The notes under the pieces are model-generated. The model ran no database searches and was not told the DNA's origin. It worked only from the letters and a program-made list of their open reading frames with translations. 64,000 bases of DNA from an uncultured delta proteobacterium. Lineage in GTDB: Bacteria > Desulfobacterota > DSM-4660 > Desulfatiglandales > HGW-15. Each line of letters begins with the position of its first letter. Within the stretch, counting starts at the first letter, position 1. This document shows positions 21,324-63,790 of the stretch, piece by piece. Position numbers and translations under genes: made by a program. The stretch lies in NCBI GenBank assembly GCA_963707125.1, contig CAVPOU010000004.1:511234-575233 (forward strand), read 5' to 3'.

Positions 21324-21399
21324 TTGGAGTATAGGAGTACTGCAGTATTGGAGCGATGGGGTTTACCATTACTCCATTACTCCGATACTCCATTACTCC
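21324..21399. repeat. Inverted octamer arrays: GGAGTAnn x3 (21324-21353) facing nnTACTCC x4 (21366-21399)
   Basis: 'agta' recurs every 8 nt on the left and 'tactcc' every 8 nt on the right. The right array overlaps the last codons and stop of the upstream subunit gene. Confidence 0.85.
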
Positions 21400-23653: not shown

Positions 23654-23897
23654 ATGGAGTATTGGAGTACTGGAAAAAATCCTCACAGTCGTCACTCCCG
23701 CGAAGGCGGGAGTCCAGAACTTCTTGATTCTCCTGGATTCCCGTTTTCACGGGAATGACGGAAAAGGGCGTTTTCCGACTTTTTGCGAAGCGTCAAGGGT
23801 GACTATCGAAAAAAATGGAGTGCTGGAGCAATGGGAAAGGAATCGTGCACAACACGCCTCCATCACTCCAGTACTCCAATACTCCAGTACTCCGCAG
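23654..23897. repeat. Composite element: GGAGTAnn octamers (23654-23673), conserved core (23690-23800, reverse copy of 26775-26920), nnTACTCC octamers (23858-23897)
   Basis: Read directly. Core contains tcactcccgcgaaggcgggagt, ggattcccgttttcacgggaatgacgg and gactttttgcgaagc. Confidence 0.8.
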
Positions 23898-29803: not shown

Positions 29804-31033
29804 ATGGATGAATTCATACCGTCGGCAAGAAGAGATCTCGAATTCTTTCCGGTCCAGCTTCAGGGCAAGCAGTACGTCCTGATCCGGGATCACCTCGGGC
29901 TGGTCCAGGAGGGGAAAGCCGTTGAGATTCCCCTCTATCAGTTCATGGTGCAGCTGGACGGCACGACCACCATCAGGGATCTCCAGATGGCGCTGATGAG
30001 GCAAAGAGGCGGGATGCTGGTGAGCAGCGACGAGGTGAAAAGCGTCATTGCTCATCTTGACGATTCTTTTTTTCTAGAATCAGAAAAGTTTGAAAAGGCC
30101 AGGAATCGCGTCGTAGAGGAGTTTGTATCCCAGAGCATAAGGCCAAGCTCCCACAGTGGCCGAGCCTACCCTGCTGATCCCAGTGAACTAAAAAGAAAGC
30201 TGAACGAGATCCTGTCCCTTCAGCCCGATTCTAAAAAGCCGGAAGGTGAACTCCTAGCCCTTGTGGCTCCTCACATTGACCTGTCTGTGGGAGGCAGGGT
30301 CTACTCAAGGGCCTATCAGATCCTGAGGGACAGGTCGCCAAAGACCGTGGTTATCCTTGGGACAGGGCACCAAATGGCTCAGGATCTCTTCGCTCTCTCG
30401 GACAAGGACTTCGAAACTCCTCTGGGAGTCGCTGTATGCGACCGGGCATCGGTTGGAAAGCTGAGAGCCGCAGGCAGGACTGCGGTAGCGAAGAATGATT
30501 TTGCTCATCGGGCGGAACATTCCATCGAGTTTCAAGTTTTATTCCTTCAGCACATTCTGCCGAAGGATTCTTTTACCATTGTTCCGGTCCTCTGCGGCAA
30601 TCTGCAAATGACCCTTTCAGAGTATAGCCGTCGAGCTTACAGAGAAAAGGCAGGCGTTTTCCTCGAAGCGCTGAAAGATATTCTTAAGCACCACGGGGAA
30701 GAGACCCTTCTGGTCGCCGGGGTTGATCTCTCACACATCGGCCCAAAATTTGGTCACGAGATGCCGGCACAATATCTCAAAAGACAAAGCGAGGCTCATG
30801 ACAGGGCCTTGCTTAAGGCCCTGACCGCGATGGATGCCGATTCATTCTGGGAGGATTCCGGGAAGGTTAAAGACCAGTACAATGTGTGCGGATTTGCAGC
30901 TCTCGCCTGTCTTCTGGAAGTCCTGCCACTCTGCAAAGGCCACCTCCTTGGATACGAGATGTGGCATGAGGAGGCAACAAGGTCAGCGGTCAGTTATGCC
31001 GCCGTTGCTTTTTCCGAGCAAAAGCAACAGTAA
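29804..31033 (+). CDS. Memo-family (AmmeMemoRadiSam system protein B-like) protein with ~105-aa N-terminal PqqD/RRE-like extension
   Basis: Memo core motifs: GRAYPADPSEL, VAPHIDLSVGG, VVILGTGH, GVDLSHIG. N-terminal pattern: YVLIRD...IPLYQFMVQLDGTTTIRDLQMAL...VKSVIAHLDDSFFL. Confidence 0.75.
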   Translation: MDEFIPSARRDLEFFPVQLQGKQYVLIRDHLGLVQEGKAVEIPLYQFMVQLDGTTTIRDLQMALMRQRGGMLVSSDEVKSVIAHLDDSFFLESEKFEKARNRVVEEFVSQSIRPSSHSGRAYPADPSELKRKLNEILSLQPDSKKPEGELLALVAPHIDLSVGGRVYSRAYQILRDRSPKTVVILGTGHQMAQDLFALSDKDFETPLGVAVCDRASVGKLRAAGRTAVAKNDFAHRAEHSIEFQVLFLQHILPKDSFTIVPVLCGNLQMTLSEYSRRAYREKAGVFLEALKDILKHHGEETLLVAGVDLSHIGPKFGHEMPAQYLKRQSEAHDRALLKALTAMDADSFWEDSGKVKDQYNVCGFAALACLLEVLPLCKGHLLGYEMWHEEATRSAVSYAAVAFSEQKQQ

Positions 31034-31160
31034 GCAGTCCGGAAAACCAGTAAGCAGTAGGCACTAAGCAGTAGGCAGTAAAGGTCAATAAACCCAGCAA
31101 CCCCTTTTCTTTTTTGTGTTTACTGCTTACTGCGTACTGCATACTGCCTACTTCTTGCTT
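31028..31160. repeat. Inverted heptamer arrays: CAGTARG units (31028-31082) facing nTACTGC x4-5 (31118-31160) around a T-rich loop
   Basis: cagtaag/cagtagg/cactaag/cagtagg/cagtaaa are contiguous, and 'tactgc' recurs every 7 nt on the right. The block lies between convergent genes. Confidence 0.85.
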
Positions 31161-31164
31161 CCTC

Positions 31165-31569
31165 CTAGTCTCTTTCACATATTTCGACCAGCACCCCATT
31201 GGTCTCTTTGGGATGAATGAAGGCGATCTTGGCGCCCCCTGCACCCTTTCTCGGCTTCTCGTCGATGAGCCTGACGCCTTTAGCCTTTAACTCAGCCAGC
31301 GCTTCTTCGATGTTTTCGACTCGAAAGGCGATGTGCTGGACTCCCTCTCCTTTAGCCTCGATGTACTTTGCAACAGGGCCGTCCGGATGGGTGGATTGAA
31401 GGAGTTCCACTTCGCTATCCGTGATGGGCAGAAAAGCCACATTCACTTTCTGGTCAGCCACATTTTCAATATCGTGGATCTTGAGGCCCAGAATGTCCGT
31501 ATAGAATTTGCCGGTCTGCTCAATGGACTTTACGGCAATACCGATGTGGTCGATGTGTTTTACTTTCAT
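31165..31569 (-). CDS. mce: Methylmalonyl-CoA epimerase (VOC/glyoxalase fold)
   Basis: MKVKHIDHIGIAVKSIE...GEGVQHIAFRV...GAKIAFIHPK. Confidence 0.8.
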   Translation of the reverse strand: MKVKHIDHIGIAVKSIEQTGKFYTDILGLKIHDIENVADQKVNVAFLPITDSEVELLQSTHPDGPVAKYIEAKGEGVQHIAFRVENIEEALAELKAKGVRLIDEKPRKGAGGAKIAFIHPKETNGVLVEICERD

Positions 31570-31747: not shown

Positions 31748-32052
<305 letters not shown>

Positions 32053-32090
32053 CAAAGAAAAACAACTAAGTATTCGAAATGATAGGCATT

Positions 32091-32471
32091 CTAGGGGGCG
32101 AACTTGTCCGCCTTTTCTATCATTCCATAGAGCATTTTGTTTACTTCATCGTACCTGCTGGACAGATCGCTATGCTTGGCATCATCGAGGTATCCAAAAT
32201 CTTTCGCAAAATCCAACCAAACTTCCGTTTCTCCAGCCTCACCAGCAGCATCAACGATTTTAGCGACGAACATCTTCTGGTATTTTCTTTTCTTCCACGC
32301 CTCGGCAATGTTGGCCGGGACACTCCTTGACGAGCGCCGGATCTGATCAGTGAGTGAATACTTTTCGTCCTTTGGGAAAGGCTTTGTTGTTTCATGGATC
32401 TCCAGAGCCAGCTTGTAAGACAGCTGATAGACTTTGAGATCCCGATAACCCCTGTATGGTTCCTTCGCCAT
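32091..32471 (-). CDS. Four-helix-bundle protein (23S rRNA intervening-sequence protein / TIGR02436-like family)
   Basis: YRDLKVYQLSYKLALEIH...LTDQIRRSSRSVPANIAEAW...AAGEAGETEVWLDFA. Confidence 0.8.
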   Translation of the reverse strand: MAKEPYRGYRDLKVYQLSYKLALEIHETTKPFPKDEKYSLTDQIRRSSRSVPANIAEAWKKRKYQKMFVAKIVDAAGEAGETEVWLDFAKDFGYLDDAKHSDLSSRYDEVNKMLYGMIEKADKFAP

Positions 32472-32480
32472 TTTCCTTGT

Positions 32481-32552
32481 TGCGTACTCCTTTATTTTTT
32501 TCTGCTTACTTTTTCCTCTTTCTGCTTACTCCTTACTGCTTACTGCCTACTG
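32481..32552. repeat. TACTGC/TTACT word array, reverse-complement partner of 31987-32052
   Basis: gcgtactcc...ctgcttact...ctgcttactccttactgcttactgcctactgg. Confidence 0.75.
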
Positions 32553-32555
32553 GTC

Positions 32556-33300
32556 TTATTCGTACCACATAATCCTTCCTGCACCCTCGCTCATGTTTGA
32601 GATTTGCCCTTCGTCGCCCGCCAGGTATAGAGTCTTCCCTTGAACCTGCATGTCGGTCAGGCAATACTTGATCTTCCCGCTTTTGTAAGCCTGGACCAGG
32701 GTCGCCCCCTCTGTCTTGAAGACGATGATACTTCCATCATAGAAAACAACAAAATCCAGCCGGCCTACCAAAGGGTTGTTTGCCACAACCAGAACTTCCT
32801 TTTTCCCGTCATCATCCACATCCATGACAACGACTCGGCTGTTCACAAGATTGGCCGGAGGTTGATCTCCGGGTCTTGTGAACCCCGATCGAATGTAGTT
32901 ATTGGAGCCCCCAAGTTTCTCATCCACCTTGGTCAAAGGGTTCCCCTGGAGGTCCCAGACCATGAGCGGAGCGCTATGCTCCAGATTCGGCTCTCCCAGA
33001 CCAAGGAATTCCAGCTTTCCATCGCGGTCGAAATCATAGAGGGTGAGGGTATAGAGTTGAGCGTTTTTGAGCCCGGGTAGGGCGTCTTTGCGAACCAGTT
33101 TCCCGGCATTATCATAAGTCATCTGCCAGATAGGGCCTTCGAAGAACCTGTCAGTGCCCGAGTCTTGGAATAACACCGAAGATTGGCCTCCGCTCTGGTT
33201 ACGGAGAACGCTGAAATGTCCATTCTGACGATCGAGTTTTCTGGTGAATTTTCCCGTCCACTCCAGGATCGAGCTTTGAGCCCGTGATCCATAGAAATAT
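32556..33300 (-). pseudogene. 5'-truncated FG-GAP/VCBS-repeat protein fragment
   Basis: DFDRDGKLEF and DVDDDGKKEVLVVANN motifs. The upstream part of the ORF (33300-33542) is antisense to the IS ORF and not protein-like. Confidence 0.55.
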
Positions 33301-33309
33301 TGGCATACT

Positions 33310-34200
33310 TGACAGGGAGCAGGTTTTCTCCTATAATCTGAATGCTTATTAAGCATGCAGATAAGGAGGAGCCCATGACAGAGACGCTTTTTAGCTTGGA
33401 ACACAGACGAGAGGCCCTGTACAGGAAGATTGAGGAAACAGGGGATTTCAGGCGAGGAACCATTTCGGTGACGTATCGCAAATGCGGGAAAAAGAACTGT
33501 GCCTGCGCACGAGAAGGGCACCCGGGCCACGGCCCCCAGCATTTATGGAGCACGACCATCAAGGGGAAAAGCTACGCGAAGAGCGTCAAGGTTGGTCCTG
33601 AGCTCAAAAAGTATTTGGACGAGATAAGTAACTATCGGAGCTTTCTGAAGCTCTGCGCTGAAATGGTCGAGGTAAACGAGCGTATATGCGATCTGCGGCC
33701 GGTGCCCGAGGTGAAAGATGACAGGGAGTTGGTCGAGCTCAAAAAAAAATTACACAAACAGTTTATGGAGAAATACAAAGGGAGATAGAGCGAATCGTCA
33801 GCCGCTACTGCAAAGAGAAGAGCGCCACTGGGAGAGTGGACCTAGAATCGTTTGAGATGAACATTCGGTCTGCCATGCACGATATTGGTAGCAAGATGCT
33901 TGAGGGGCTTATAAATGCTGATGGGGGCGATTACGGCGGCAGGACAATCCCCTGTGACAAGGGGCATCAGTACGAGTTCATCGGATATAGGGATAAGAAA
34001 GTGCTTACAGTTTTGGGGCCTGTTACGGTCAAGAGGGCCTATTACTACGATGGGCAATGCCAGCGGGGATGTTGCCCGAAGGATAGCGCTCTTGACATTG
34101 TGGGGACATCTTACAGTTCCGGCGCTCCCCTTCGCGTATTCAGCTAGATCCGTGAAGGAGACTGGGATTGAAACTGTCGTATTGCCATCCTCTCTCGCTT
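33310..34200 (+). mobile_element. Truncated ISKra4-like insertion sequence remnant
   Basis: ORF 33375-33788 follows AAGGAGG and has a Zn-ribbon CGKKNCACAREGHPGHGP. ORF 33836-34147 carries LTVLGPVTVKRAYYYDGQCQRGCCPKDSALD, typical of ISKra4-family transposase N-termini, but ends after 103 aa. Confidence 0.6.
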
Positions 34201-37740: not shown

Positions 37741-37880
37741 GTGTCTCACCGATAACTTACCCAGGCAACTTCCCATCACCCCCACCTCGCCTCCCCCATC
37801 AAGGGGGAGGAAACTATTAGTGGTCGATAAGAATTCCCCCTCCCCTGGTGGGAGGGGTTAGGGGAGGGGGAAGCAAACAG
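37741..37880 (+). repeat. G/C-rich double-hairpin intergenic element (copy 2 of 2, with ~30-bp insertion)
   Basis: Shares GTGTCTCACC, CCTCCCCCATCAAGGGGGAGGAAACTATTAGTGGTCG and GGGAGGGGTTAGGGGAGGGGGAAGCAAA with 20466-20580. Confidence 0.85.
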
Positions 37881-41481: not shown

Positions 41482-41724
41482 ATGAGTACGGTAAGGATGA
41501 ACATCACGATCCCTGAGCAGTTGGCCCGCAAGCTGGACCAGATGGTAAGCCCAAGAAAAAAAAGCACCTTCATTGTTAAGAGTTTGGAGGAGTGCATTCA
41601 CAGGATGGAACGCGAAGAGCTCAAAGCCAATCTTAAGGAAGGATACAAAGTAAGAAGGGACGAAGGGCTAAGGATTGCCGGGGAGTTTCGAAAAGTGGAT
41701 CTGGAGGGATGGGATGAGTATTAG
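41482..41724 (+). CDS. mazE: RHH/CopG-type antitoxin
   Basis: 80 aa. MNITIPEQLARKLD is a ribbon-helix-helix start. The gene overlaps the toxin start. Confidence 0.75.
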   Translation: MSTVRMNITIPEQLARKLDQMVSPRKKSTFIVKSLEECIHRMEREELKANLKEGYKVRRDEGLRIAGEFRKVDLEGWDEY

Positions 41725-42058
41725 AAGAGGGGAGATCTATATTGCAGCCCTTGATCCTGTGGTCGGCAGAGAAATCTCCAAGACGCGTCCTGTGGTGGTG
41801 GTTTCTAACGACTTGAATAATCAATTCGCGGCCACGGTGACTGTACTCCCGATCACCTCTATGAATCTTGACAAGATTTATCCTTTTGAGGTTTTTCTGC
41901 CAAAAGGCTCCGGCGCCCTACCCAAGGATTCGAAAGTCAAAGCAGATCAGATACGCACCCTCGATAAAGCTCGGATAGCCAAACTGTTGGGGAAAGTGGA
42001 TCAGAAAAAAATCACGGCGATCGATAAGGCGGTGAAAATACATTTGGGGCTGGAGTGA
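41714..42058 (+). CDS. mazF: MazF/PemK-family endoribonuclease toxin
   Basis: IRRGEIYIAALDPVVGREISKTRPVVVVSND...VLPITS. ATG 41714 overlaps the antitoxin stop. Confidence 0.85.
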   Translation: MSIRRGEIYIAALDPVVGREISKTRPVVVVSNDLNNQFAATVTVLPITSMNLDKIYPFEVFLPKGSGALPKDSKVKADQIRTLDKARIAKLLGKVDQKKITAIDKAVKIHLGLE

Positions 42059-42504
42059 TGAAAACAAGAATACAGGAGACTGAATACAGTATGAAAGCAG
42101 ACCACAGAGGACCCCAGTTGAATAGTCCTTCGCCCCAGTGAAATAGGCCTTCAGGATTTCACCCCGATGGAATAGAACTGCAACATCATTCCATAGGGCA
42201 GGCGGGGCAAAATTCAACGGGGCAAGCCGGATTATCAGGATTATTGTGTTTCGAAACATAAAGAGCAAACATCTTTGATCCTGTTAATCCTGTCTAAAGA
42301 AGCTCGCATCTTACCTCAGTTCGCTCGACCCCTCATCGATCGGAAATTGCGCATGCAATGGGGGCGTGGACTCGTGAAATTCTGGAACAAGCTTGATGGG
42401 TTCAGAAGTTTCAGGGTACTAATGCGAGAGGCACAAGCAGGCACGGACAAACCTAAATCGTTTGTCCGTGCCACCCAGTCTTGTCACTCGTTACTCGTCA
42501 CTGA
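42059..42504. repeat. Composite repeat block: ACAG heptads, expanded H2 hairpin (42112-42228), GGATTAT/ATCCTGT inverted words (42229-42298), H1 hairpin (42439-42476), CACTCGT heptads (42484-42504)
   Basis: Read directly. H1 reads gcacggacaaacctaaatcgtttgtccgtgccaccc. Confidence 0.8.
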
Positions 42505-43905
42505 CTACGGTTTGAGGCCCAATTCGTCGATGCGGCCGAGCAGGGTTTTGTAGCTCACGCCAAGCACTTCAGCTGCCTTTTTCCTGTTCCACTGAGTTTT
42601 GGCGAGCACATCCACGATGGCCTGGCGCTCCGCTTCAGAGACATAGGTCTTGGTAATTTTCTTGATAGAAAAACGGTTTTCCCTAATCAGCCTCTCGATT
42701 TTCTCATCGGACCAACCGACGACCGTCCCCAAGTCTTCCATTGAGGCGTGTTCCCCCTTCTTCTGGAGACTCTCCAGGCTGAGCTCCCTGAACACAAACT
42801 CCCAGTCTTTAAGCGCGACCGCGCGGCGCACCACATTTTCGAGCTCTCTCACATTTCCCGGCCACTGGTAGGATTGAAGATGCTTCAGTATCTTCCCAGG
42901 GATCTCCAGGATGTCTTTCTTCAGCTCAAGACAGTACTTGTTGACAAAATAGTAAATCAGTATGGGGATGTCCGGTTTCCTTTCCCTCAAGGGCGCAGCC
43001 TGGATATGAATCACATTAAGGCGGTAGAAAAGATCTTTTCTGAAGAGACCGTCCCGCACCTTTCTCTGAAGATCCGAATTGGTCGCAGCCACAACCCGGG
43101 TATCCACGAACTTGTCGTAGATCCCTCCAAGCCTAGCGAAAGCTTTATCTTCAAGGACCTGGAGGAACTTTGCCTGGAGAGAGAGCGAGAGGTCTCCGAT
43201 TTCATCTATGAAGAGCGTCCCGTTGTGGGCCAGCTCCAGTCGCCCAGGCTTGTTCTTGTGGGCGCCTGTAAACGCCCCCTTCTGAAAACCAAAGACCTCG
43301 CTTTCAAGAAGTTCATCCGGCAAGGCACCGCAGCTGATTTTTACCAGAGGCCCCTGGTTTCGCTGCGAATGGTAATGGACGGAGCGCGCGATCAGCTCTT
43401 TTCCGGTGCCCGTCTCCCCGGTGATCAGCACAGTAATGTCTTTGGCCGCTACCTTTTGAATCTTCAGTTTGATGTTTCTGATCGCCTCACTGTGCCCGAT
43501 AATGACCGGATAGTCCGGTCGCATTTTGTATTCATCCCTGAACTTCAAAGCGCTCTGTACTGTCTCGGCAAATTCTGCGCCCTCCAGATCCGTTCCAATG
43601 GGGTAGATCCCTTCAAAAGGCACGATCTCCGGACCCTCGGCCAGCGGCACTCCGCCACAGGAGGTAAGAACAGGCATGAAAGGGGTGATGATTTTCAATT
43701 TGTGAATGCACTGGATGCATGTCTCCGCATCGAGCGAAGGGCCGAGGACAGCCAGGTCAGGCTTCAAGGCTGCCAGCTCATCAATGGCCACATTCGGCCT
43801 TGCCGTAAAGCAGTGGACGAATCCGAACTGCTTGACTCTTTCAGCCCAGGCCTCGGCTAATGAAGGATCTGAATCAATGACAAGGACGTTAATTCCATCG
43901 GCCAT
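42505..43905 (-). CDS. Sigma-54-dependent transcriptional activator (NtrC family) with degenerate receiver domain
   Basis: GETGTGKE, GAFTGA, C-terminal HTH AAEVLGVSYKTL. The receiver region reads KPDLAVLGPSLD where DLVLLD is expected. Confidence 0.85.
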   Translation of the reverse strand: MADGINVLVIDSDPSLAEAWAERVKQFGFVHCFTARPNVAIDELAALKPDLAVLGPSLDAETCIQCIHKLKIITPFMPVLTSCGGVPLAEGPEIVPFEGIYPIGTDLEGAEFAETVQSALKFRDEYKMRPDYPVIIGHSEAIRNIKLKIQKVAAKDITVLITGETGTGKELIARSVHYHSQRNQGPLVKISCGALPDELLESEVFGFQKGAFTGAHKNKPGRLELAHNGTLFIDEIGDLSLSLQAKFLQVLEDKAFARLGGIYDKFVDTRVVAATNSDLQRKVRDGLFRKDLFYRLNVIHIQAAPLRERKPDIPILIYYFVNKYCLELKKDILEIPGKILKHLQSYQWPGNVRELENVVRRAVALKDWEFVFRELSLESLQKKGEHASMEDLGTVVGWSDEKIERLIRENRFSIKKITKTYVSEAERQAIVDVLAKTQWNRKKAAEVLGVSYKTLLGRIDELGLKP

Positions 43906-44254
43906 GGCGCAAAACCCTCGGCTTTCAGCGGTCAGCTGTCAGCTTCAAAGAAAGAATACAGAAGACAGAATTCAGAATCAGAACCCCAATCACGAAAACA
44001 CCCCAGTTGAATCGTCCCCCTGACGGGGGAATTCAACGGGACAGGCGAAAACTGGAAAACACGAAAGAACATTGCACCACGGACAAGCAAAATCAGCTTG
44101 TCCGTGCCACCCAGTCTTTTCAAGCTTGTCCGCTCTTAGCAAGCATCCCCATTGTTACCACGGACAACCATCCTCCCGAGGCAGATAAGAATCAGTTTGT
44201 CCGTGCCACCGCATCGCAATCTCTATGCTCTCTGCTCCACGCCCTACGCTGTCT
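43906..44254. repeat. Composite repeat block: CAGCGGT words, ACAGAAG heptads (43950-43985), H2 hairpin (44000-44050), GAAAACnn octamers, two H1 hairpins (44077-44111, 44158-44210)
   Basis: Read directly. Confidence 0.8.
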
Positions 44255-47058: not shown

Positions 47059-47290
47059 GGCTTGCCCGTTATGCGTTGTTCGCTATCCGTTGTTCGCTAT
47101 CTGTTATCCGTTATCTGTTTATATGACAATAAGCGTTCGCCCTCACGTTCTGTCTTCTTGTTTCTTGTTTTGAACATTTTAGGCACTTTAGTCACTTCCC
47201 TATGCTGACCTCCGACTTCTGACCTCTGGTGTTCTGTCATCTGATTATTACTGACTGTTCACTGGTTTCATGCTGTCTTTTGTATTCTTT
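47059..47290. repeat. Composite word arrays: CGTTRTY heptads (47067-47122), TTCTKGT words, GGCACTTTAGTCACTTC (47182-47198), CTGACYT heptads
   Basis: cgttgttcgctatc is repeated twice, then tgttatc/cgttatc/tgtttat follow. A 17-nt block is identical to 56692-56708. Confidence 0.8.
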
Positions 47291-47291
47291 C

Positions 47292-47540
47292 CTATTTCAT
47301 ACTTCCCAAATATGCAAGGTCCTTTTCCTGCGTGTTCTTGGTTCCTATGGCCACGATCAGTTTCCTGGCCTGAGAATCCTTCTGATAATAGAGCCTGCCC
47401 GAGTAGGCGAAGGGGATCTCGATGAAATCCGTCTTTCCGCCTTTGCCCAGATATCTTTCCAAGCCGTTCAGTGTCAAAATATAGCAAACCGGCGGCAAGA
47501 AGATGCACAGAAAGAGTATTTTGAAAGGGAAATTCTTCAT
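47292..47540 (-). CDS. Hypothetical small secreted/membrane protein
   Basis: MKNFPFKILFLCIFLPPVCYIL is a hydrophobic N-terminus. No clear RBS, and overlapping alternative frames exist. Confidence 0.35.
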   Translation of the reverse strand: MKNFPFKILFLCIFLPPVCYILTLNGLERYLGKGGKTDFIEIPFAYSGRLYYQKDSQARKLIVAIGTKNTQEKDLAYLGSMK

Positions 47541-47548
47541 TAAGCATA

Positions 47549-47872
47549 CAGTAGCGATCAGCAACAGCCAGTAATCAGTGATCAGTAATCAGTGATCAGT
47601 GATCAGTGATCAGTAATCAGTAATCAGAAGAAGCTATCAGCCCTTCGACCATGCTCAGGGTCTGCGACAGGGCAGGCGAAAACTGGAAGACACGAAAGAA
47701 GGTCCTCTCACAGACAAAAAAATTCGTTTGTCCGTGCCACCAAGTCTTTTCTCGCCTCACTGCTTTGCCCGCTCTTGATGAGCATCCGTCACTCGATCGT
47801 TCTATGCGTTTATCTATACTGGCCTGGCCTTTGGAAAATATTCCTCTGTGCTCTCTGTGAGAGACAAGGTTT
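47549..47872. repeat. ATCAGTR heptamer array (8 contiguous units, 47574-47629) followed by CCTTCGA-CTCAGGG motif (47641-47665), GAAAACTGG/CACGAAAG words and H1 hairpin (47707-47743)
   Basis: 'atcag' starts at 47574 and recurs every 7 nt eight times. Confidence 0.9.
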
Positions 47873-50639: not shown

Positions 50640-50870
50640 ATGTCCGAGGAGTACAGTTCCAGCACGGTTACAGATACGGAGTTTGACATCATTGATGAAT
50701 TGAAGGCAACGGTGAGTGACCTTGAGAAAGGACTGCCACCATCCGGCAACAAAAAGATTGCTGAGAAATTCTCGTATCTTAAGTTTCTGATTCATGAACT
50801 GGACGATACCCTCTCTGGAGAATTCGAAGCCCTTAGGCACAAGAGGTTTATCACGAAGAAGAGCGGCTAG
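50640..50870 (+). CDS. Hypothetical acidic 76-aa protein
   Basis: AAGGA lies 7 nt upstream. No family recognised. Sits in an AT-rich region. Confidence 0.4.
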   Translation: MSEEYSSSTVTDTEFDIIDELKATVSDLEKGLPPSGNKKIAEKFSYLKFLIHELDDTLSGEFEALRHKRFITKKSG

Positions 50871-50889: not shown

Positions 50890-51035
50890 CTGCCCTTCGA
50901 CCCCTGGATTCAGGTCGACACGGTGCCCGACCCTACTCAGCTTCATCCTTCGATACCTCAGGGCGAACGGAAACAGTGTTTTGTAAGTGTTTGATTTTCC
51001 GTTCGTGGTGAGGCACCGAACCATAAACGGAAAGA
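50890..51035. repeat. CCTTCGA-CTCAGGG hairpin element (arms 50947-50970 / 50999-51022) plus a partial copy at 50893-50920
   Basis: ccttcgatacctcagggcgaacgg faces ccgttcgtggtgaggcaccgaacc. Confidence 0.75.
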
Positions 51036-51362: not shown

Positions 51363-51521
51363 ATGAGAGATCAAGCTCTGGCTTTAAAGGAAAAAACCCG
51401 TTCGGAAAAATTAAACCTGGAGATGGACCTCGATAAGGTGATTCGATCGCTTGAGGAAGCAGCTCAGGAAATCGAGAAAGTCGACTGGGAGCACGGCGGA
51501 TTGGCGAGTAACGACAGGTAA
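51363..51521 (+). CDS. Hypothetical 52-aa coiled-coil protein
   Basis: AGGAGG (51350-51355) lies 7 nt before ATG 51363. Confidence 0.5.
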   Translation: MRDQALALKEKTRSEKLNLEMDLDKVIRSLEEAAQEIEKVDWEHGGLASNDR

Positions 51522-51582: not shown

Positions 51583-51780
51583 TCAGCACCTGCTTTCGCC
51601 GGTCCCCACCATGTCCTGCTGCAGCATTTGCAGAGGTGCTATGGAGTCAACGAATCCCCGAATTGTCCTGAGCTCCATCATGGTGCTGCAGCTGAAATAT
51701 TTCACCGGGCCTTCATAGTCCTCGAACACATTGTGGTCGAGGTTCACATCCCTTCCGCAAGAAACGCATTTGATTTTCAT
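51583..51780 (-). CDS. Hypothetical 65-aa protein with N-terminal CxxC knuckle
   Basis: AAGGGGGG RBS. MKIKCVSCGRDVNLDH...; the second knuckle is degenerate (CSTM). Confidence 0.5.
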   Translation of the reverse strand: MKIKCVSCGRDVNLDHNVFEDYEGPVKYFSCSTMMELRTIRGFVDSIAPLQMLQQDMVGTGESRC

Positions 51781-52136: not shown

Positions 52137-52145
52137 CAAAATCTA

Positions 52146-52220
52146 GTAAGCAGTACGGAGTAAGCAGTAGGCAGAAACCAATACTCCCCTACTCCGGTAC
52201 TCCAATACTCCTGTACTCCA
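52146..52220. repeat. Word arrays in the tRNA-Gly/tRNA-Cys spacer: AGTAnnn heptads x4 (52146-52174) then TACTCCnn octads x5 (52181-52220)
   Basis: 'agta' recurs every 7 nt, then 'tactcc' every 8 nt. Confidence 0.85.
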
Positions 52221-52226
52221 AAATTT

Positions 52227-54660: not shown

Positions 54661-55155
54661 TTATTCTAAGAGAGTGACCTGCTGGTCCTCTCCTTTGAGT
54701 TCCCGCAGTATTTGGGAAGCCGTCCTGGCTAAGACCGGATGAATCACAGCAGGGTCGACCTCGGCCAACGGCACCAAGACAAATCTGCGCAGGTGCATGT
54801 AGGGATGAGGGACCTTCAGGTCTGATTCGTCCAGGATGTCCATTCCGTGCACCAACAAATCCAGATCAATGACTCTTGGCCCCCACTTCTCCGTCCTGAC
54901 TCTCCCCATCCCGGCTTCAATGGAGAGAAGCCGGCCCAGAAGCTCCCGGGCCGAGATTTCCGAATCGAGGCATGCCACGCCGTTCACGAACCAGTTCTGG
55001 TCTTGCGTGCCCACAGGGCTTGTCAGATACCAGCGGGAGCATCGGATGAATTCACATCCCCGAATCTGCTTCAGCCTTTCGACCGCTTCAGCGCAGTGTT
55101 TCCGCCTTTCTCCGAGGTTCGAACCAATTCCGATAAGTGCTTGTTTCATAATCAA
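54661..55155 (-). CDS. folK: 2-amino-4-hydroxy-6-hydroxymethyldihydropteridine diphosphokinase
   Basis: IGIGSNLG...GPRVIDLDLL...PHPYMHLRRFVLVPL. Confidence 0.85.
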   Translation of the reverse strand: MIMKQALIGIGSNLGERRKHCAEAVERLKQIRGCEFIRCSRWYLTSPVGTQDQNWFVNGVACLDSEISARELLGRLLSIEAGMGRVRTEKWGPRVIDLDLLVHGMDILDESDLKVPHPYMHLRRFVLVPLAEVDPAVIHPVLARTASQILRELKGEDQQVTLLE

Positions 55156-55159
55156 ACAA

Positions 55160-55195
55160 AAGAATACAGAAGACAGGAGACAGAAGACAGAATGA
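55160..55195. repeat. ACAGRAG heptamer array
   Basis: 'acag' recurs four times at 7-nt spacing. Confidence 0.8.
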
Positions 55196-56383: not shown

Positions 56384-56701
56384 GGTCTCTCAATCTCCTT
56401 CGATAAGTGCCTAAAATTGAAAGGCAAAGAACTCAAGGCCTGAATGAGCATGAGTGCCTGGAGTGTATAAATTTGAAAGGTCAGGTCAATAAAATACACG
56501 AAAGAACCTACACTCACGGACAAACAAAGTTCGTTTGTCCGTGCCACCCGTCTTGCTCACTGATCACTGGTGACTGATTACTGGTTTCTTGCTGTCTTCT
56601 TTTCTTGCCGTGCACCCTGCGCCGTGCGCCGTGCACCCCTCCTATTAAACCCTTTAGCGCACTTTAGACATTTTAGCCTACGGCCCGGAGGGGCACTTTA
56701 G
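56384..56701. repeat. Composite block: H1 hairpin (56514-56550), CACTGRT heptads (56558-56584), GTGCRCC heptads (56608-56638), CACTTTAG words (56650-56708)
   Basis: Read directly. Confidence 0.8.
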
Positions 56702-57505
56702 TCACTTCAATCCCAACACATCCTGCATATCATAGAGCCCAGAGGGTTGATGGACAACCCATGCAGCGGCTCTAACAGCGCCCCTGGCAAAATTGTCCCG
56801 GTTGTGGGCCCTGTGGATGAGTTCCAGTCGCTCTCCGATGCCGCCGAACAGGATGGTGTGTTCTCCTGTAATGTCGCCTGCTCTCCAGGTTTGGATTCCG
56901 ATCTCCTTGGACGTTCTCTCCCCGATAATGCCTTTTCTGTGGTAGACCGCAACCTCATCAAGATCACGGTTCGTAGATGCCGCCAGGATCTGAGCGAGAC
57001 GCATGGCAGTGCCGCTCGGAGCATCTTTCTTGAACCGGTGATGAACCTCGAGGATCTCCATGTCATAATCTTTTCCCAGGATCCTGGCCATCTCCCCGGC
57101 AATCTTGAACATCACGTTCACGCCGACGCTCATGTTGGGGGACATGACGCAGCGGGTGCTCTTCGCAAGGGCCTTTACCTGGTCGAGCAAGTTCCCGCTC
57201 ATGCCTGTCGTTCCGATGACCACGGCCAGGTTAGCGGTGGACGCAAGTTTGAGGTTTTCCACCGTTGCCTCAGGCGCTGTGAAATCGATGATCACCTCTC
57301 CGAGGCCGATGACCTCCCTGAGGGATCCGGCCACCTTGATGCCGAAGTTCCCAAGGCCTGCCACCTGCCCCACGTCGGATCCCACACTTGGATGATCCGG
57401 CCGCTCGAAAGCGGCGGCCAACTCAACGTCGGTGCTCTGACGAATCATGTGGATGATTCGCCCGCCCATTCGGCCCGCAGCACCAGCAACAATGGCTCGG
57501 ATCAT
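56702..57505 (-). CDS. dapB: 4-hydroxy-tetrahydrodipicolinate reductase
   Basis: GAAGRMG and EVHHRFKKDAPSGTA. Confidence 0.9.
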   Translation of the reverse strand: MIRAIVAGAAGRMGGRIIHMIRQSTDVELAAAFERPDHPSVGSDVGQVAGLGNFGIKVAGSLREVIGLGEVIIDFTAPEATVENLKLASTANLAVVIGTTGMSGNLLDQVKALAKSTRCVMSPNMSVGVNVMFKIAGEMARILGKDYDMEILEVHHRFKKDAPSGTAMRLAQILAASTNRDLDEVAVYHRKGIIGERTSKEIGIQTWRAGDITGEHTILFGGIGERLELIHRAHNRDNFARGAVRAAAWVVHQPSGLYDMQDVLGLK

Positions 57506-57750
57506 GACACAACCCCCTACGAAACCCTATCTCCCGTTTGGTGGCACGGACAAGCGAACTGAGCTTGTCCGTGCCGCCAGAGATCTTGTGCTTCTTCGTG
57601 CTCACTTCCCATTGTCCAACTTCCTGTATCCTTTCACGGACAAACAGAATTCGTTTGTCCGTGCCACCCTCATTTCTTTGCATTAACCAGCATGCAGAAT
57701 CCACCCACGGACAAGCAAAGTTCGCTTGTCCGTGCCACCGTATGCCTGCT
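57506..57750. repeat. Three H1 hairpins in 245 bp (57540-57578, 57635-57668, 57705-57740)
   Basis: Each reads CACGGACAARC-loop-GYTTGTCCGTGCC. Confidence 0.9.
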
Positions 57751-58626: not shown

Positions 58627-58668
58627 AACCAATCCTCCTCCCCTCTTGATTGAAAGAACAAAAAACAA

Positions 58669-59030
58669 AGAATACAGGAGACAGTAGCCAGAAGACAGTA
58701 GTCAAAATCAAAGGCTCGACCACGAAAGCACGAAAACTGGAAAACACCCCAGTTGAATAGTCCCGCTCCCGCGGGAATTCAACGGGGCAGGCGAAAAAGA
58801 GCATATCCGACAGGATTTACAGGATCGACACGATGTTTAATCTTTGGCTTTGAAATACAAGAATCCTGATCATCCTGTTAATCCTGTCTAACTCTTTCTT
58901 TTGCCTCAAGCGGAGCGCTCCTCGAATTCCCGCAGCGCGGGGATGCTCCTCAAGCGAAGCGCTCATCCTTCAGCGGTCAGCCGTCGGCGGTCGGTCGTCG
59001 CTCATTGTCAGCGGTCTGCCGTCGGCGTTC
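58669..59030. repeat. Composite block: ACAG heptads (58668-58705), CACGAAAG words (58721-58748), H2 hairpin (58746-58797), ACAGGAT/ATCCTGT inverted words, CTCAAGCGRAGCGCTC x2, CAGCGGT heptads (58971-59030)
   Basis: Read directly. The last array lies inside the lysA ORF tail. Confidence 0.8.
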
Positions 59031-60289
59031 TCTTTAAGCATAAACTCCGGGATCGTTTCACCCCGGACCAAGTCCTCGTAGCTCTCTCTTGTCCTGATGA
59101 CGTGATAGGCGTCCCCTTTTCCCAGTACCTCTGCGATTCGGGGTCTCGAGTTGTAATTGGAAGACATGCTGAAGCCATAGGCGCCTGCACTCATAACCGC
59201 CAGGAGGTCTCCTGTTTCGAACGAATCCATCTCTCGATCTTTCGCCAGAAAATCCGAGGATTCACAAATGGGACCCACGACATCCGCCTTGATCTTCCTG
59301 CGGCAGGTGACTCTCACAGGCTCAATGCCATGGAAAGAACCGTAGAGACTGGGCCTGATGAGATCGTTCATCCCCGCATCCACGATGATGAAGCTTTTCT
59401 CGGGAGTTGTCTTCGTGTAGAGCACCCTGGTCACCAGAATCCCGGCGTTGCCCACGATCACCCGGCCCGGCTCCAGGATCACCGTGACGTCCTTCATGTC
59501 CAGTTCGTCTTGGATAGCTTTGGCATACTCCCTGGGATGAGGGGGTTCTTCCTGGTCGTAGGTGATTCCCAACCCGCCGCCCAGATCCAGATAGGACACG
59601 CCAATCCCGATTCCCTTCAACTTACCGATCAATTCCTTGAGCTTTTTGAGCGCATCCACGAACGGGCTCAACCGTGTCAGCTGGGAACCGATGTGACAGG
59701 AGACGCCTGAGACCGTCAGGTTCCTCATACCCGACACCCGCGTGTATTCTTCAAGCGCGTTCCGTATGTCGATCCCGAATTTGTTCTCTCTCAGCCCTGT
59801 GGAGATGTAGGGATGGGTCTGAGGGTCGATGTCCGGATTGACGCGGATTGAAATACCCGCCTTCTTGCCCATCCTCCCGGCCATTTCATTAAGGAGCAGG
59901 ATCTCCTGAGAGGACTCGACATTGAACATGAGAACCCGGGATTGGAGAGCATACTCCATGTCTTCGCTTGTCTTGCCGACTCCGGAATAGACAATCTTTT
60001 TCGGATCGATGCCGGCCTTCAGAGCCCGGTAGAGTTCTCCGCCTGAAACAATGTCCACTCCTCCGCCTTCGAGCGCGAAGAGCTTCAGGATCGCCAGATT
60101 GGAATTTGATTTCATGGCAAAGCACGTCAGATGGGGAACATCGTTGAACGCGCCATCGAAGGCCCTAAAATGCTGTCTCAGAGTCGCATAAGAATAGAGG
60201 TAAAGGGGCGTGCCCAGATCCTTTGCGATCCGGGACACGGGCACGTCCTCGCAGTGAAGTTCATTGTTTCTGTACTGGAAGTGATGCAT
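58970..60289 (-). CDS. lysA: Diaminopimelate decarboxylase
   Basis: ATG 60289 (MHHFQYRNNELHCEDV). PLP-Lys region CFAMKSN and GGGLGI. The C-terminal ~20 aa are encoded by a heptamer array. Confidence 0.9.
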   Translation of the reverse strand: MHHFQYRNNELHCEDVPVSRIAKDLGTPLYLYSYATLRQHFRAFDGAFNDVPHLTCFAMKSNSNLAILKLFALEGGGVDIVSGGELYRALKAGIDPKKIVYSGVGKTSEDMEYALQSRVLMFNVESSQEILLLNEMAGRMGKKAGISIRVNPDIDPQTHPYISTGLRENKFGIDIRNALEEYTRVSGMRNLTVSGVSCHIGSQLTRLSPFVDALKKLKELIGKLKGIGIGVSYLDLGGGLGITYDQEEPPHPREYAKAIQDELDMKDVTVILEPGRVIVGNAGILVTRVLYTKTTPEKSFIIVDAGMNDLIRPSLYGSFHGIEPVRVTCRRKIKADVVGPICESSDFLAKDREMDSFETGDLLAVMSAGAYGFSMSSNYNSRPRIAEVLGKGDAYHVIRTRESYEDLVRGETIPEFMLKENADGRPLTMSDDRPPTADR

Positions 60290-60392
60290 AAAATAAGAAT
60301 AACAGAATACAGAATTCAGAAAAAAAACGGTGCACGGTACACGGTCCAAGGTGCACGGCCAAAACAAACGACAAATGATGGATGAAAAATGG
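60290..60392. repeat. ACAGAAT words and ACGGTNC heptads (60327-60358)
   Basis: acggtgc/acggtac/acggtcc/aaggtgc/acgg are contiguous. Confidence 0.75.
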
Positions 60393-60827
60393 TTACTCGA
60401 CTACTACTCTTGCTCGGTTCGAGGGCGGACCCAGGCCGCCCTTCGCTCCAGCAAGCTGCACTTCAAAATAATAAATGTTGCCCTTCACCGCACCCGGGAT
60501 TTTGCAGAAGAACTGGCCCTCCCGGACCACTTCAGGCCCGTACGTGTGAAACCCCTGGAACTCAATGGGGCAGCCGTCGCAGGGAGGCTCGGCCACAGGA
60601 TAAATCGCGTAGTGAACCCGCGATCCTGTAACCGTCGAGTCAGGACCTGAAGAGTCTGGAATGCCTCCCTTCAGCTCGATATATCCTTCCTGCCACGCTC
60701 CCTTTAAGTCAACGACTCTGACGTTGGTGATTTCTTGCGGTAAGAAGGGATCCCCTTTTACTCCGCACGATGCAGGGATCAGGAGCATCAAAACAAGAAC
60801 AAGACACGCCTGTGCCCTCCCTCTCAT
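60393..60827 (-). CDS. Lipoprotein (LptM/YifL-like N-terminus)
   Basis: LLIPASCGVKGDPFLPQ is a lipobox plus a KG-P-LP motif. ATG 60827-60825 overlaps the argH stop TGA 60826-60824. Confidence 0.6.
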   Translation of the reverse strand: MRGRAQACLVLVLMLLIPASCGVKGDPFLPQEITNVRVVDLKGAWQEGYIELKGGIPDSSGPDSTVTGSRVHYAIYPVAEPPCDGCPIEFQGFHTYGPEVVREGQFFCKIPGAVKGNIYYFEVQLAGAKGGLGPPSNRARVVVE

Positions 60828-62200
60828 TTGGACCCGATCTCTTTCCGAGCTTTCACAAGAGCTCTTTTTACGGCACCACTCCCGGTCCCGCCGGGAAGGT
60901 TTCTTCTGTTGATGCAGGAGAGGGGATCGAGCCACTCATAGACATCTTTCCCAATATCTCCGAAAAAACCCTTCATCTCCTTGAGGGTCAGATGTCTCAG
61001 CTCTTTGCCGTGGTCCATGGCATAAAGGACCATCTTGCCCACGATTTCGTGGGCCCGGCGAAATGTCACGCCCTTTCGCACGAGATAATCCGCCAGATCC
61101 GTGGCCACCAGATAGCCTTCGTCTACGGCTTGTCTCATCCTCTCTTTGTTGAAAGAGATCTCCTTGAGCAGGCGCGTCATCACAACCAGGCTTTTCTCCG
61201 CAGTGTCCACAGCGTCAAACAGCGGCTCCTTGTCTTCCTGCATGTCTTTGTTGTAGGTGAGCGGGAGCCCTTTCATCGTGGTCAGGAGAGCCGTGAGATG
61301 CCCGTACACTCTCCCGGTCTTGGCTCTCACAAGCTCCATCAAATCCGGATTTTTCTTCTGGGGCATGATGCTGCTTCCGGTGCAGAAGGCATCGGGAAGA
61401 AAAACAAAATCAAACTCCTTGGTGGACCAGATCACCAGTTCCTCGCTCAGGCGGCTCAGGTGCATCATGAGGACCGACGAAGCAAAAAGAAACTCCAGCA
61501 CAAAATCGCGGTCGCTCACGGCATCCATGCTGTTTTCTGAAATGGTGTCAAAGCCCAGTTCCTTAGCCACCATGTCGCGGTCGAGGTCAAAGGTCGATCC
61601 TGCAAGCGCCGCACTGCCGAGAGGAAGAACATTCACCCGCTTGAGGTTCTCGCCGAACCGCTGGCGATCCCGTTTGAGCATCTCGTAATAGGCAAGAAGA
61701 TGATGGGCCAGAAGGACCGGCTGGGCACGCTGGAGATGAGTGTACCCCGGCATGATGATCTCTGAGTTCTTTTCCGCCAGAAAGACCAAAGCCCTCTGCA
61801 TCTCCCGGATGAGCCCATCCGCTCGCTCAATCGCATCCCTCACATAGAGCCGCACGTCAAGCGCAACCTGGTCGTTCCGACTTCTCCCTGTGTGGAGCTT
61901 TTCTCCGATGGGCCCCACCTTGTCCACCAGGGCTTTCTCGACCAGGGTGTGGATGTCTTCATAGGCTTCATCGAAGAGGCCTCTCTCCATCTCTTTCTTG
62001 ATCTCGGCCAGAGCTTCAAGCATCTTCGAGGCCTCTGCCTTGGGGATGATTCCCTGCTTGGCGAGCATCCGGCAGTGGGCTTTGCTGCCCTCGATGTCCT
62101 GCGCATAGAGCCGCTGGTCAAAAGTGATGGACGCGTTGAAACGCTCAAGAGCTTCGTCTGTCTGTTCCTTGAAACGGCCACCCCAGATTTTCTTGGCCAT
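60824..62200 (-). CDS. argH: Argininosuccinate lyase
   Basis: GSSIMPQKKNPD signature. 458 aa. Confidence 0.95.
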   Translation of the reverse strand: MAKKIWGGRFKEQTDEALERFNASITFDQRLYAQDIEGSKAHCRMLAKQGIIPKAEASKMLEALAEIKKEMERGLFDEAYEDIHTLVEKALVDKVGPIGEKLHTGRSRNDQVALDVRLYVRDAIERADGLIREMQRALVFLAEKNSEIIMPGYTHLQRAQPVLLAHHLLAYYEMLKRDRQRFGENLKRVNVLPLGSAALAGSTFDLDRDMVAKELGFDTISENSMDAVSDRDFVLEFLFASSVLMMHLSRLSEELVIWSTKEFDFVFLPDAFCTGSSIMPQKKNPDLMELVRAKTGRVYGHLTALLTTMKGLPLTYNKDMQEDKEPLFDAVDTAEKSLVVMTRLLKEISFNKERMRQAVDEGYLVATDLADYLVRKGVTFRRAHEIVGKMVLYAMDHGKELRHLTLKEMKGFFGDIGKDVYEWLDPLSCINRRNLPGGTGSGAVKRALVKARKEIGSK

Positions 62201-62429
62201 ATTTATTCCTTAGCAGAAGGTGATTTCTAGCGTTGCGAGGAGTATGTGTTGCCGCGATCAGCTTCAGTAAATTCGAAGCACGAAATTCGAAATCCGAAAC
62301 AAAATTACAAATTCAAATGTTCCAATGTCCAAAAGAGGAGTCTGTTGGAAGAGGACTCTTGTTTGTGACATTAGAATTTTTGTCATTAGATATTGTTTCG
62401 AGTTTCGATATTCGAATTTCGAATTTGCA
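62201..62429. repeat. Inverted heptamer arrays: AAATYCG/ATTCAAA/ATGTCCA units (62269-62331) facing TTTCGAn units (62395-62428)
   Basis: Nine contiguous 7-nt units on the left and four on the right. Lies between argG and argH. Confidence 0.85.
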
Positions 62430-63635: not shown

Positions 63636-63700
63636 GTCGAATTTCTCCTAATCAAATATTTGATGATCTATCTGGATTCCCGCCGTAACCCTCCCGTTTG

Positions 63701-63790
63701 CCCTTCGATACCTCAGGGCGAACGCAAAATCAAACGGTCGCAGAAAATGGCACCCCGTTCGTGCTGAGGTATCGAAGCACGAACAGTTTG
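63701..63790. repeat. CCTTCGA-CTCAGGG hairpin element
   Basis: cttcgatacctcagggcgaacg (63703-63724) faces cgttcgtgctgaggtatcgaag (63756-63777). Confidence 0.85.

Follow-up and report, generated by a model that had tools for sequence, protein, structure and literature searches.

Short tandem repeat arrays at stop codons and array-encoded protein C-termini in a 64-kb stretch of an uncultured Desulfobacterota genome

Introduction

Can short tandem repeats that abut or overlap stop codons rewrite the C-termini of the proteins encoded upstream, and do they reach these positions by targeting or by being tolerated there? The question is raised by a 64-kb stretch of contig CAVPOU010000004.1 from an uncultured delta proteobacterium (the whole stretch is hereafter called the window), in which arrays of 7-, 8- or 9-nt units adjoin or overlap the 3' ends of lysA, acdA, dapB, a Memo-like open reading frame (ORF) and other genes. 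A prediction made from the letters of the window (the original prediction) held that such elements rewrite C-termini and preferentially insert at, or expand from, the 3' ends of genes. Its first part holds for LysA and AcdA and, in relatives, for Memo, whose array-free relatives end differently; it does not hold for DapB and a cupin protein, which keep their ancestral ends, that of DapB being present also in relatives without the array.

The window has about 53% G+C and consists of 14 kb of non-coding and 50 kb of coding DNA. Its genes, assigned with Pfam and PDB, include argG, argH, lysA, dapA, dapB, an aminotransferase gene, HPPK and an ADP-forming acyl-CoA synthetase pair; arginine, lysine and folate biosynthesis are represented. 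In a scan of GTDB species with LysA, the closest species-level genome, labelled as a Deltaproteobacteria/Desulfobacteraceae metagenome-assembled genome (MAG), encodes a LysA that is 78% identical; the species of the window itself therefore has no GTDB representative. Contigs encoding proteins identical or 85-99% identical to those of the window are found in many metagenome samples. Loci of relatives are designated by L numbers (L001 and so on); the related loci total about 130 kb and are partly orthologous to the window. Protein ends are written up to the stop codon. Coordinates of the main features are given in Table 1.

Array-encoded C-termini of LysA, AcdA and Memo

In the window, LysA ends in ...IPEFMLKENADGRPLTMSDDRPPTADR. 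The DNA of this tail falls into eight in-register heptads (GCCGACG GCAGACC GCTGACA ATGAGCG ACGACCG ACCGCCG ACGGCTG ACCGCTG, followed by A). Its period-7 autocorrelation is 0.57, compared with a mean of 0.25 (maximum 0.38) in the lysA coding sequence, and lies within the top 0.5% of all 76-nt windows. The array is also called by Tandem Repeats Finder (TRF), with scores of only 30-42. The heptad coding proposed for the last ~20 codons is thus borne out.

Among the matches listed (at least 120, covering 95% of the query), LysA homologues are most often 418 aa long and end in ..IP[DE]FM[LKQR]; orthologues that are 86-94% identical mostly have the end ..IP[DE]FML. Among the matches listed, the end LKENADGRPLTMSDDRPPTADR of the window is unique; shorter related tails are found in four clusters at 86-87% identity (KDDDAPPTADR, KDDDGPLTADR, KDDDGQLTADGR and KADGRPPTAVY), and other homologues have 4-residue tails. 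The DNA of related loci shows how such a tail arises. In L004 (LysA 92% identical), ATGCTT is followed by TGA and, directly after, by an array (GATGACC GTCGACC GGCGACG GCTGACC...) of the same GACCGCC type as in the window. At the position of this TGA the window has AAA; no stop follows FML, and the frame stays open as far as the TGA in ACCGCTGA. In L085, where LysA ends in LMGER, the array has just two or three units. L086 has no array, its LysA ends in FMLS and its lysA-dapA spacer is 54 nt; the dapA-proximal end of this spacer is kept in L085 and in the window. From these comparisons, the array 3' of lysA is old at its site and variable in length, and is read or unread according to the state of the native stop. 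The hypothesis of a functional extension of LysA was rejected: among relatives that are 86-94% identical, tails vary both in how long they are and in sequence, and most relatives have none. The LysA peptide ENADGRPLTMSDDRPPTADR and the C-terminal AcdA peptide ending in SNGVSE are the predicted tail products.

The acd alpha gene (acdA; Pfam CoA_binding/Succ_CoA_lig) encodes a protein ending in ...RSNGVSE. Its stop lies inside an array, as had been read; the unit has 8 nt and reads GGAGTAAT on the coding and CCATTACT on the plus strand, and the last ~6 residues and the stop fall within it. Together with the complementary arm in front of acdB, this array forms a hairpin of -43 kcal/mol (z = -8.0 against shuffled sequences). 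In the array-free relatives L106 and L108, AcdA ends in MK..NS[VA]EPGG and the stop lies 2 nt before the acdB start, overlapping the acdB ribosome-binding site. Many relatives, like the window, have an insertion just upstream of this site: a hairpin whose octamers are GGAGTAnT or GGAATAnT. The AcdA ends of the window and of array-bearing relatives (RSNGVSE, RSTGVSE, RSVGVME, RNNGMLE, RNHGILD) are unit translations. They follow the general pattern R-S/N-x-G-x-x-E/D (for example in L092-L094, L099, L107 and L109), with a unit-borne stop that is mostly TAA and sometimes TGA. L088 (AcdA 99% identical) has only two units and ends in MKK; in L121, a more distant relative, the tail YWTEEDRK derives from an AGAAGAC array. 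The element has replaced the last ~7 codons of acdA. No target duplication was found at the acdA-acdB or argG-argH junctions, and no conserved target motif was found for the array hairpins.

The Memo-like ORF (29804-31033) ends CAA CAG TAA G, so that its stop, within CAACAGTAAG, belongs to the first CAGTAAG unit, in agreement with the earlier reading. This unit is followed by 13 degenerate bases and then by the TRF-called CAGTAAG/CAGTAGG array (31048-31081). The Memo core ends in ..AF[TA][AE]. The protein ends in AFTA in the array-free L171; in L170 the stop lies within GAG TAG G and is followed by CAGTAAG units. In the window and many relatives the end is EQKQQ (CAA AAG CAA CAG TAA G); the QKQQ codons look like degenerate CAGCAAA/CAGTAAG units and are probably array-derived. 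In L169, where CAA replaces TAA, the Memo frame stays open for 21 more codons (QAAKTVGSKEYEVSSQISRE) and runs through the array. The Memo protein of L168, a locus from a different sample, is identical to that of the window; the left arm there is longer by 36 nt (about 5 units) and the right arm shorter by 7 nt (one unit). The Memo relatives came from a protein search; the acdA-centred loci contained one partial Memo match only.

Elements over stop codons that leave the protein unchanged

The dapB stop is located in GGCACTTTAGTCACTTC (56692-56708), a perfect match of exactly 17 nt to 47182-47198, as originally noted; each copy is part of a TTTAGGCAC-type 9-mer array. DapB ends in VLGLK or VLGLR in L085 and L086, which have no such array. 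These two loci carry a different element, an inverted GGAGTA pair, 1 nt past the dapB TGA.

At the cupin gene, the element is a miniature inverted-repeat transposable element (MITE), found in one copy only within the window. Its terminal inverted repeats are TAACGTTCAGAAGGGTTTGCATGGG and CCCATGTAAACACTTTTGAACGTTG. The predicted target duplication over the cupin stop is present: a 10-nt direct repeat, AACTGGTGAG, lies at 12283-12292 and 12588-12597, and the stop (12289-12291) is in the left copy. Four other metagenome contigs encoding an identical cupin have an empty site, with ...AAACTGGTGA and GATGAAATCG on the two sides of the insertion point; the protein is identical at empty and filled sites. 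The inverted repeats, the target duplication and the empty sites identify element 12293-12587 as a true MITE.

Array content and distance to stop and start codons

About 40 arrays with 7-, 8- or 9-nt units were called by TRF in the window. A detector of period-7/8 arrays found 33 in non-coding DNA, against 1.3 expected from shuffled sequence, and 8 in coding DNA, which is the chance level (about 6.8 from the same shuffles); the arrays are confined to non-coding sequence. With both programs, head-to-tail units of about 7 nt in at least 3 copies were found at many loci. The unit families include CAGTAAG, GGAGTAAT, ACCGCTG, CTGTMTT, AAATTCG, TTTAGGCAC and others. A scan of the window with Rfam found three tRNAs and nothing else, and so no family for the arrays. 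Pfam gave no families for the small ORFs adjoining arrays (47292-47540, 50640-50870, 51363-51521, 51583-51780, 60393-60935 and others). Heptad or octad families of their own, often in inverted pairs, adjoin lysA in GTDB MAGs of Desulfobacterota and a few other lineages (L013, L014, L036, L040, L044, L047; examples are AGGCTGA/CAGCCTT and CGCCAAGA/TCTTGGCG). To judge from these loci, the phenomenon is broader than the lineage of the window.

The distances between arrays and codons were compared with a permutation null in which arrays are re-placed at random inside their own spacers. In the window, 5 of 19 stop-side gaps were at most 3 nt long (1.2 expected, p=0.005), a count that omits the lysA and dapB arrays, which were missed by the detector or assigned to the gene. 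Start-side gaps of this size were found for 1/19 (0.86 expected), and even gaps of up to 10 nt are rare on this side (1/19). In 16 related loci, counted after removal of orthologous duplicates of one junction, the corresponding figures are 9/30 on the stop side (3.1 expected; reached in 0 of 5000 permutations) and 3/30 on the start side (2.6 expected). A permutation of the related loci without this removal was rejected as inflated, one acdA insertion being counted in several orthologous loci. The stop-side excess is real as a pattern, and start codons have no excess. The predicted non-randomness of the distance from stop codon to array thus stands for the window and the related loci. As for preferential insertion at, or expansion from, 3' ends, the adjacency is significant but the mechanism does not follow from it: arrays are also found in a tRNA spacer and 2-40 nt upstream of start codons.

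Hairpins, polarity and turnover

Inverted array pairs are located at 31048/31120, 21320/21366, 23655/23867, 62269/62396, 51876/51913, 47237/47604 and 58809/58863. The array hairpins fold far better than shuffled sequences, with z from -4.3 to -9.0. Between argG and argH, the spacer is 229 nt in the window and 8-9 nt in two syntenic relatives (L085, L086), from which an insert of ~220 nt is missing; the insert leaves the ribosome-binding region intact. Nested hairpins with small loops are found downstream of acdA in L094 (about 7450-7720) and L100 (about 2270-2520). The outer arms are of the GGAGTA octamer in both; the inner arms are CACGAAAG in L094 and GCACGGT in L100. The nesting looks as if new inverted-array modules had entered the loops of older ones.

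On the sense strand, 11/13 stop-proximal and 4/13 start-proximal arrays are purine-rich (Fisher p=0.015); the purine-rich orientation, nearly universal for the stop-proximal arm, carries TAA, TAG or TGA. Of 33 frames tested on each strand, stop-proximal arrays close 23/33 in the sense and 4/33 in the antisense direction. Strains differ by the gain or loss of whole array units; species differ in having or lacking whole elements, and one site can hold different array families in different species. Pyrimidine-rich MTYCTGW arrays are found in the leaders of lysA, dapA, HPPK and the genes starting at 43905, 31569 and 31748. Neither lysA nor HPPK has a Shine-Dalgarno sequence; CTGTATT/CTGTCTT arrays end 2 nt and 11 nt before the respective ATG (60290-60321, 55150-55192).

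Two ORFs are enclosed by inverted arrays. The gene at 32091-32471 (minus strand), for a '23S rRNA intervening sequence protein' of the bAvd-like four-helix bundle type, has CAGTAGG / CTTACTG arrays on both sides (31988-32552) and resembles cargo flanked by 'terminal repeats'. An 82-aa ORF (47292-47540) likewise lies between inverted CAGTAAT-type arrays.

Table 1. Position and context of arrays and associated features in the window. Strand: +, plus; -, minus.
Feature	Position	Strand	Context
MITE, ~295-nt fold-back with ~25-nt terminal inverted repeats	12283-12597 including duplication; element 12293-12587	+	10-nt target duplication AACTGGTGAG
Complementary arm (CTCCAATACT.. on the coding strand)	21320-21351	-	In front of acdB; pairs with 21366-21410
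GGAGTAAT octamer array	21366-21410	-	Encodes the AcdA tail (R)SNGVSE and the stop TAA (21377-21379)
Inverted GGAGTACT octamer arrays	23655-23893	-	One 7 nt past the stop of a DUF35/ChsH2-like gene, the other abutting the rsmE start; enclose further hairpins; z = -9.0
CAGTAAG/CAGTAGG heptad array	31028-31081	+	First unit holds the Memo stop TAA (31031-31033); purine-rich hairpin arm
Inverted partner array (CTTACTG on the plus strand)	31112-31164	-	Flush with the stop of a convergent glyoxalase gene (31165-31569)
CAGTAAG-type array	32502-32552	-	3 nt past the stop of gene 32556-33542
AGTGACG/AGTAACG array	42483-42502	-	2 nt past the stop of a sigma-54 activator gene (42505-43905)
TTTAGGCAC array, second copy	47178-47198	+	Holds the 17-nt identity to 56692-56708
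CAGTAAG-type and GGAGTA-type arrays	52145-52221		Fill the 90-nt tRNA-Cys/tRNA-Gly spacer; gaps 7-8 nt; no stop codon there
CTAAAGTGC 9-mer array	56640-56708	-	Begins at and overlaps the dapB stop (56702-56704); DapB C-terminus unaltered
Pyrimidine-rich CTGTCTT/CTACTGT array	58653-58701	-	dapA leader; L086 has a single CTGTATTCT motif there
Degenerate heptad array, GACCGCC/ACCGCTG type, 8 units	58970-59035	-	Encodes the last ~21 LysA residues and the stop TGA (58970-58972)
lysA (diaminopimelate decarboxylase), 439 aa	58970-60289	-	Similarity to solved structures stops at about residue 411-417
CCGTGCA-type then CTGTATT-type arrays	60292-60362	-	Upstream of lysA; end 2 nt before the ATG; no Shine-Dalgarno sequence
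Inverted AAATTCG / TTTCGAA arrays, ~95-nt core	62269-62426	-	Start 3 nt past the argG stop (TAA); z = -5.5

Origin of the stop adjacency

With a probability of roughly 0.6, stop adjacency is explained by selection that confines fast-evolving intergenic repeats to permissive sites, and no targeting is needed. The repeats would evolve by slippage within arrays and by gain, loss and replacement of hairpin modules, and purifying selection would restrict them to information-free bases. The permissive place would be directly past the stop or in the last dispensable codons. Where relatives give the ancestral spacers, these are small: 8-9 nt between argG and argH, and 54 nt, conserved on the downstream side, between lysA and dapA. 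Arrays would be flush with stops because the ancestral spacers, short to begin with, are conserved in their downstream part (ribosome-binding site, leader). Orthologue comparison shows two routes to a tail: the element lands in the last codons of a gene (acdA), or the native stop mutates (lysA, TGA in a relative and AAA in the window; Memo, TAA to CAA in a relative). By either route, the ORF enters the array and gains a short lineage-specific tail and a new stop. A regular stop-bearing array closes every frame within 7-8 codons because neither 7 nor 8 is a multiple of 3. Regular arrays give short tails (acdA), and degenerate units without in-frame stops give about 21 residues (LysA of the window, Memo of L169). 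The array-encoded tails are most likely neutral by-products.

Three rival explanations were weighed. Targeted insertion or local expansion, in which elements would recognise a sequence or structure near the stop or slip from a stop-containing heptamer, is judged unlikely. It would produce the stop-side excess seen in both permutation tests, and dapB offers two further arguments: in three species, different arrays start 0-1 nt past its stop, and its ancestral end shares a 7-nt microhomology, GAAGTGA, with the end of the 47182-47198 array copy. Boundary units also often carry the gene's own stop triplet (CAGTAAG, GAGTAGG, GGAGTAAT, ACCGCTGA). However, the same unit families recur at stop-free loci (tRNA spacer, 5' leaders, divergent regions) and are therefore not locally seeded from each gene's stop; local seeding was rejected on this ground. 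Some arrays lie 30-45 nt from the stop, as between the aminotransferase gene and HPPK in the window and in L086; neither a target duplication nor a conserved target motif was seen for the array hairpins; and the known ancestral spacers, of 0-9 nt or conserved, left no other viable insertion site. Selection accounts for the adjacency at least as well as targeted insertion does. Placement by selection for a function, as intercistronic stem-loops that protect upstream mRNA or are cut by RNase III, in the manner of REP/BIME, Correia and ERIC elements, or as repeated regulator binding sites, is doubtful but carries some weight. The purine arm would be a fail-safe translation terminator, the pyrimidine arm the leader of the next gene, and the C-terminal tails a side effect. 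Such elements would account for the strength and occasional nesting of the hairpins, and for the MTYCTGW arrays directly upstream of the Shine-Dalgarno-free starts of lysA and HPPK, which parallel the Beggiatoaceae TAACTGA repeats (PMC4679880) and the MTYCTGA paired sites of Geobacter metallireducens (PMC2700814). On the other side, elements are present or absent, or replaced by other families, between species about 89% identical in LysA, and unit numbers change between strains, which speaks against a conserved role at any single site; relatives L086, L106, L108 and L171 manage without arrays, and the arrays match no Rfam family. Chance or artefact (repeat misassembly, over-long ORF calls, coincidence) is scarcely credible. 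Repeats are hard to assemble and the lysA array is degenerate, as its TRF scores indicate, but homologous arrays occupy the same sites in many independent assemblies, the statistical excesses are strong, related tails are found in four other LysA protein clusters, and no stop follows FML in the window.

Several observations weigh against selection for permissive sites as the explanation. The fixed purine-then-pyrimidine polarity relative to transcription hints at selection at the RNA level, and so at function and not mere tolerance; the same hint comes from the arms, which co-vary between relatives and stay complementary while their unit sequences differ (GGAGT/ACTCC, GGAAT/ATTCC). The MITE landed at the cupin stop although 147 nt of spacer existed, and the lysA-dapA insertions of L085 and the window are all no more than ~4 nt away from the stop, despite the 54 nt of an L086-type spacer; both observations also fit targeting. 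The dapB-aminotransferase spacer as a whole folds no better than shuffled sequences (z = -0.6), and therefore not every spacer is one big hairpin. An exact-protein look-up gave no record of the 439-aa LysA elsewhere, and hence no independent assembly of its tail, which also speaks for artefact. The counts come from a small sample, one 64-kb window and about 130 kb of related loci, some of whose junctions are orthologous to those of the window; gene starts are rule-assigned, not experimental; and the null treats the whole spacer as permissive, so that it cannot tell selection from targeting.

A bolder proposal, quite improbable at present, is that the inverted and often nested array pairs are a distinct class of self-propagating intercistronic hairpins, widespread in Desulfobacterota and acting in translation termination, re-initiation or mRNA processing. 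If so, the purine-rich, stop-bearing arm would be flush with the upstream stop and the pyrimidine-rich arm would form the leader of the gene that follows; further copies would insert into older loops or stop-proximal bases, and C-terminal rewriting would be a regular evolutionary output.

Other elements in the spacers

Besides arrays, the spacers of the window contain REP-like palindromes, further hairpin families, three tRNAs and the MITE; arrays, palindromes and at least this one MITE make up most of the spacer DNA. The REP-like family, GGTGGCACGGACAARC(loop)GYTTGTCCGTG, has at least 10 intergenic copies (including 57540-57739, 56516-56550, 47715-47741, 44080-44211, 42445-42482 and 2216-2255). 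In the dapA-dapB spacer, three of these palindromes are found in the window and two in L086; L085 has array hairpins instead. A hairpin family GCCTGCCCCGTTGAATT...AATTCAACTGGGGTG, with the STRR1-like heptamer CCCCAGT, is found at 58745-58800, 43995-44050 and 42111-42245, and also in the lysA-dapA spacer of L004. Another hairpin element, with CCTTCGATACCTCAGGGCGAACG, has two copies (50942-51027 and 63696-63784). An element of ~100 nt (CCCCACCTSGCCTCCCCCATCRAGGGGGAGGAAACTATTAGTGGTCG...GGGAGGGG...) has two copies, both in spacers of convergent genes (20470-20575 and 37780-37880). About 20 nt of one end of tRNA-Arg (CTGGTGCGCCCAGGGTGATTC) are duplicated about 95 nt away (10525-10550 and 10620-10645), a pattern typical of an integration-site remnant. 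A MazF/PemK toxin gene (41714-42058) is preceded by a small ORF that is probably its antitoxin (region 41483-42058); AGAATAC-type heptads lie about 8 nt past the toxin stop.

Significance

Where uncultured genomes are rich in repeats, the annotated ends of core enzymes such as LysA, AcdA and Memo can have arisen recently from non-coding repeats and can vary between strains. Such tails affect orthology-based annotation, protein-length statistics and structure prediction. The arrays are also a clean natural example of unit lengths without the factor 3 and stop-bearing units limiting the damage of read-through. Inverted, nested and strand-polar array hairpins are a poorly described trait of Desulfobacterota genomes and the part most worth following up; their candidate origins (mobile, slippage-driven or functional) can now be tested on complete genomes.

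Comparison with known systems

REP, BIME and REPIN elements are short intergenic repeats of alternating orientation that form hairpins and are typically located 3' of genes (PMC2817692). The arrays of the window are like them in forming inverted hairpin pairs, but the arms are tandem arrays and not single palindromic units. No RAYT transposase was seen among the selected ORFs scanned in these 64 kb, a scan that included no dedicated RAYT test.

MITE-ORF fusions have been reviewed for RPE, ERIC, Correia and YPAL (PMC2229807). In Coxiella burnetii, the small hairpin repeats QMITE1 and QMITE2 extend 1-50 bp into the 3' ends of housekeeping genes; in strain Dugway, the last 33 residues of EnhC come from QMITE2, and in another strain a stop codon immediately precedes the element (PMC5896051). 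This polymorphism, stop present or stop lost, is the same as that of lysA and Memo here. Unlike MITEs, the array hairpins have arms of tandem 7-9-nt units, neither target duplication nor fixed length, and unit slippage.

Mazel et al. 1990 are said to have described the cyanobacterial STRR as tandem-heptamer families scattered over non-coding regions, which often lie 3' of genes and are transcribed together with them. STRR units include CCCCAGT, TTGGTCA and CAACAGT, and their function is unknown. The arrays of the window differ from STRR in unit sequences and in lineage, their relatives being Desulfobacterota MAGs.

Direct repeats of the heptamer TAACTGA are known from marine Beggiatoaceae and some Cyanobacteria and Bacteroidetes (MacGregor 2015, PMC4679880). 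They are almost wholly intergenic, at many loci, and their forward orientation, with stops in three frames, allows brief overlap with ORF ends; 13 sets overlap an upstream stop, and the C-terminal residues that they encode (for example in MurG) have no homology to relatives. They are also found just upstream of starts without ribosome-binding sites (PMC4679880). The window shares with this system tandem intergenic heptamers, a stop-bearing orientation and stop overlap at lysA, acdA and Memo. A TTACTGA/TCACTGA array (47569-47627, minus strand) is one base from TAACTGA; the exact unit was not found. The window differs in having many unit families instead of one, 8- and 9-nt units and another phylum. 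Its inverted or nested hairpin pairs are frequent, whereas one inverted repeat is reported for BOGUAY; its enrichment is on the stop side, whereas that of BOGUAY is on the start side (PMC4679880).

The layout is that of G. metallireducens, in which 3-5 tandem hepta-, octa- or nona-nucleotide units form multi-copy intergenic pairs whose members lie on opposite strands and are spaced variably (Aklujkar et al. 2009, PMC2700814). These were read as binding sites of a global regulator (IHF/HU), and the paper reports no link to stop codons or protein tails (PMC2700814). The arrays of the window are likewise paired on opposite strands, multi-copy and built of 7-9-nt tandem units. Of the consensus sequences GTTGCTYN, TCTCCGTS and MTYCTGA, only the last was sought; this class 3 unit resembles the MTYCTGW arrays of the window (19 matches against 0.4 expected, at most 3 mismatches), the matches mostly ending in T and not A. 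Other unit sequences of the window differ from those of G. metallireducens.

Because the arrays have neither STRR nor TAACTGA units, and no MITE-type duplications, they are therefore regarded as the instance of a known phenomenon in a new lineage. C-terminal rewriting by repeats is already described for other bacterial elements.

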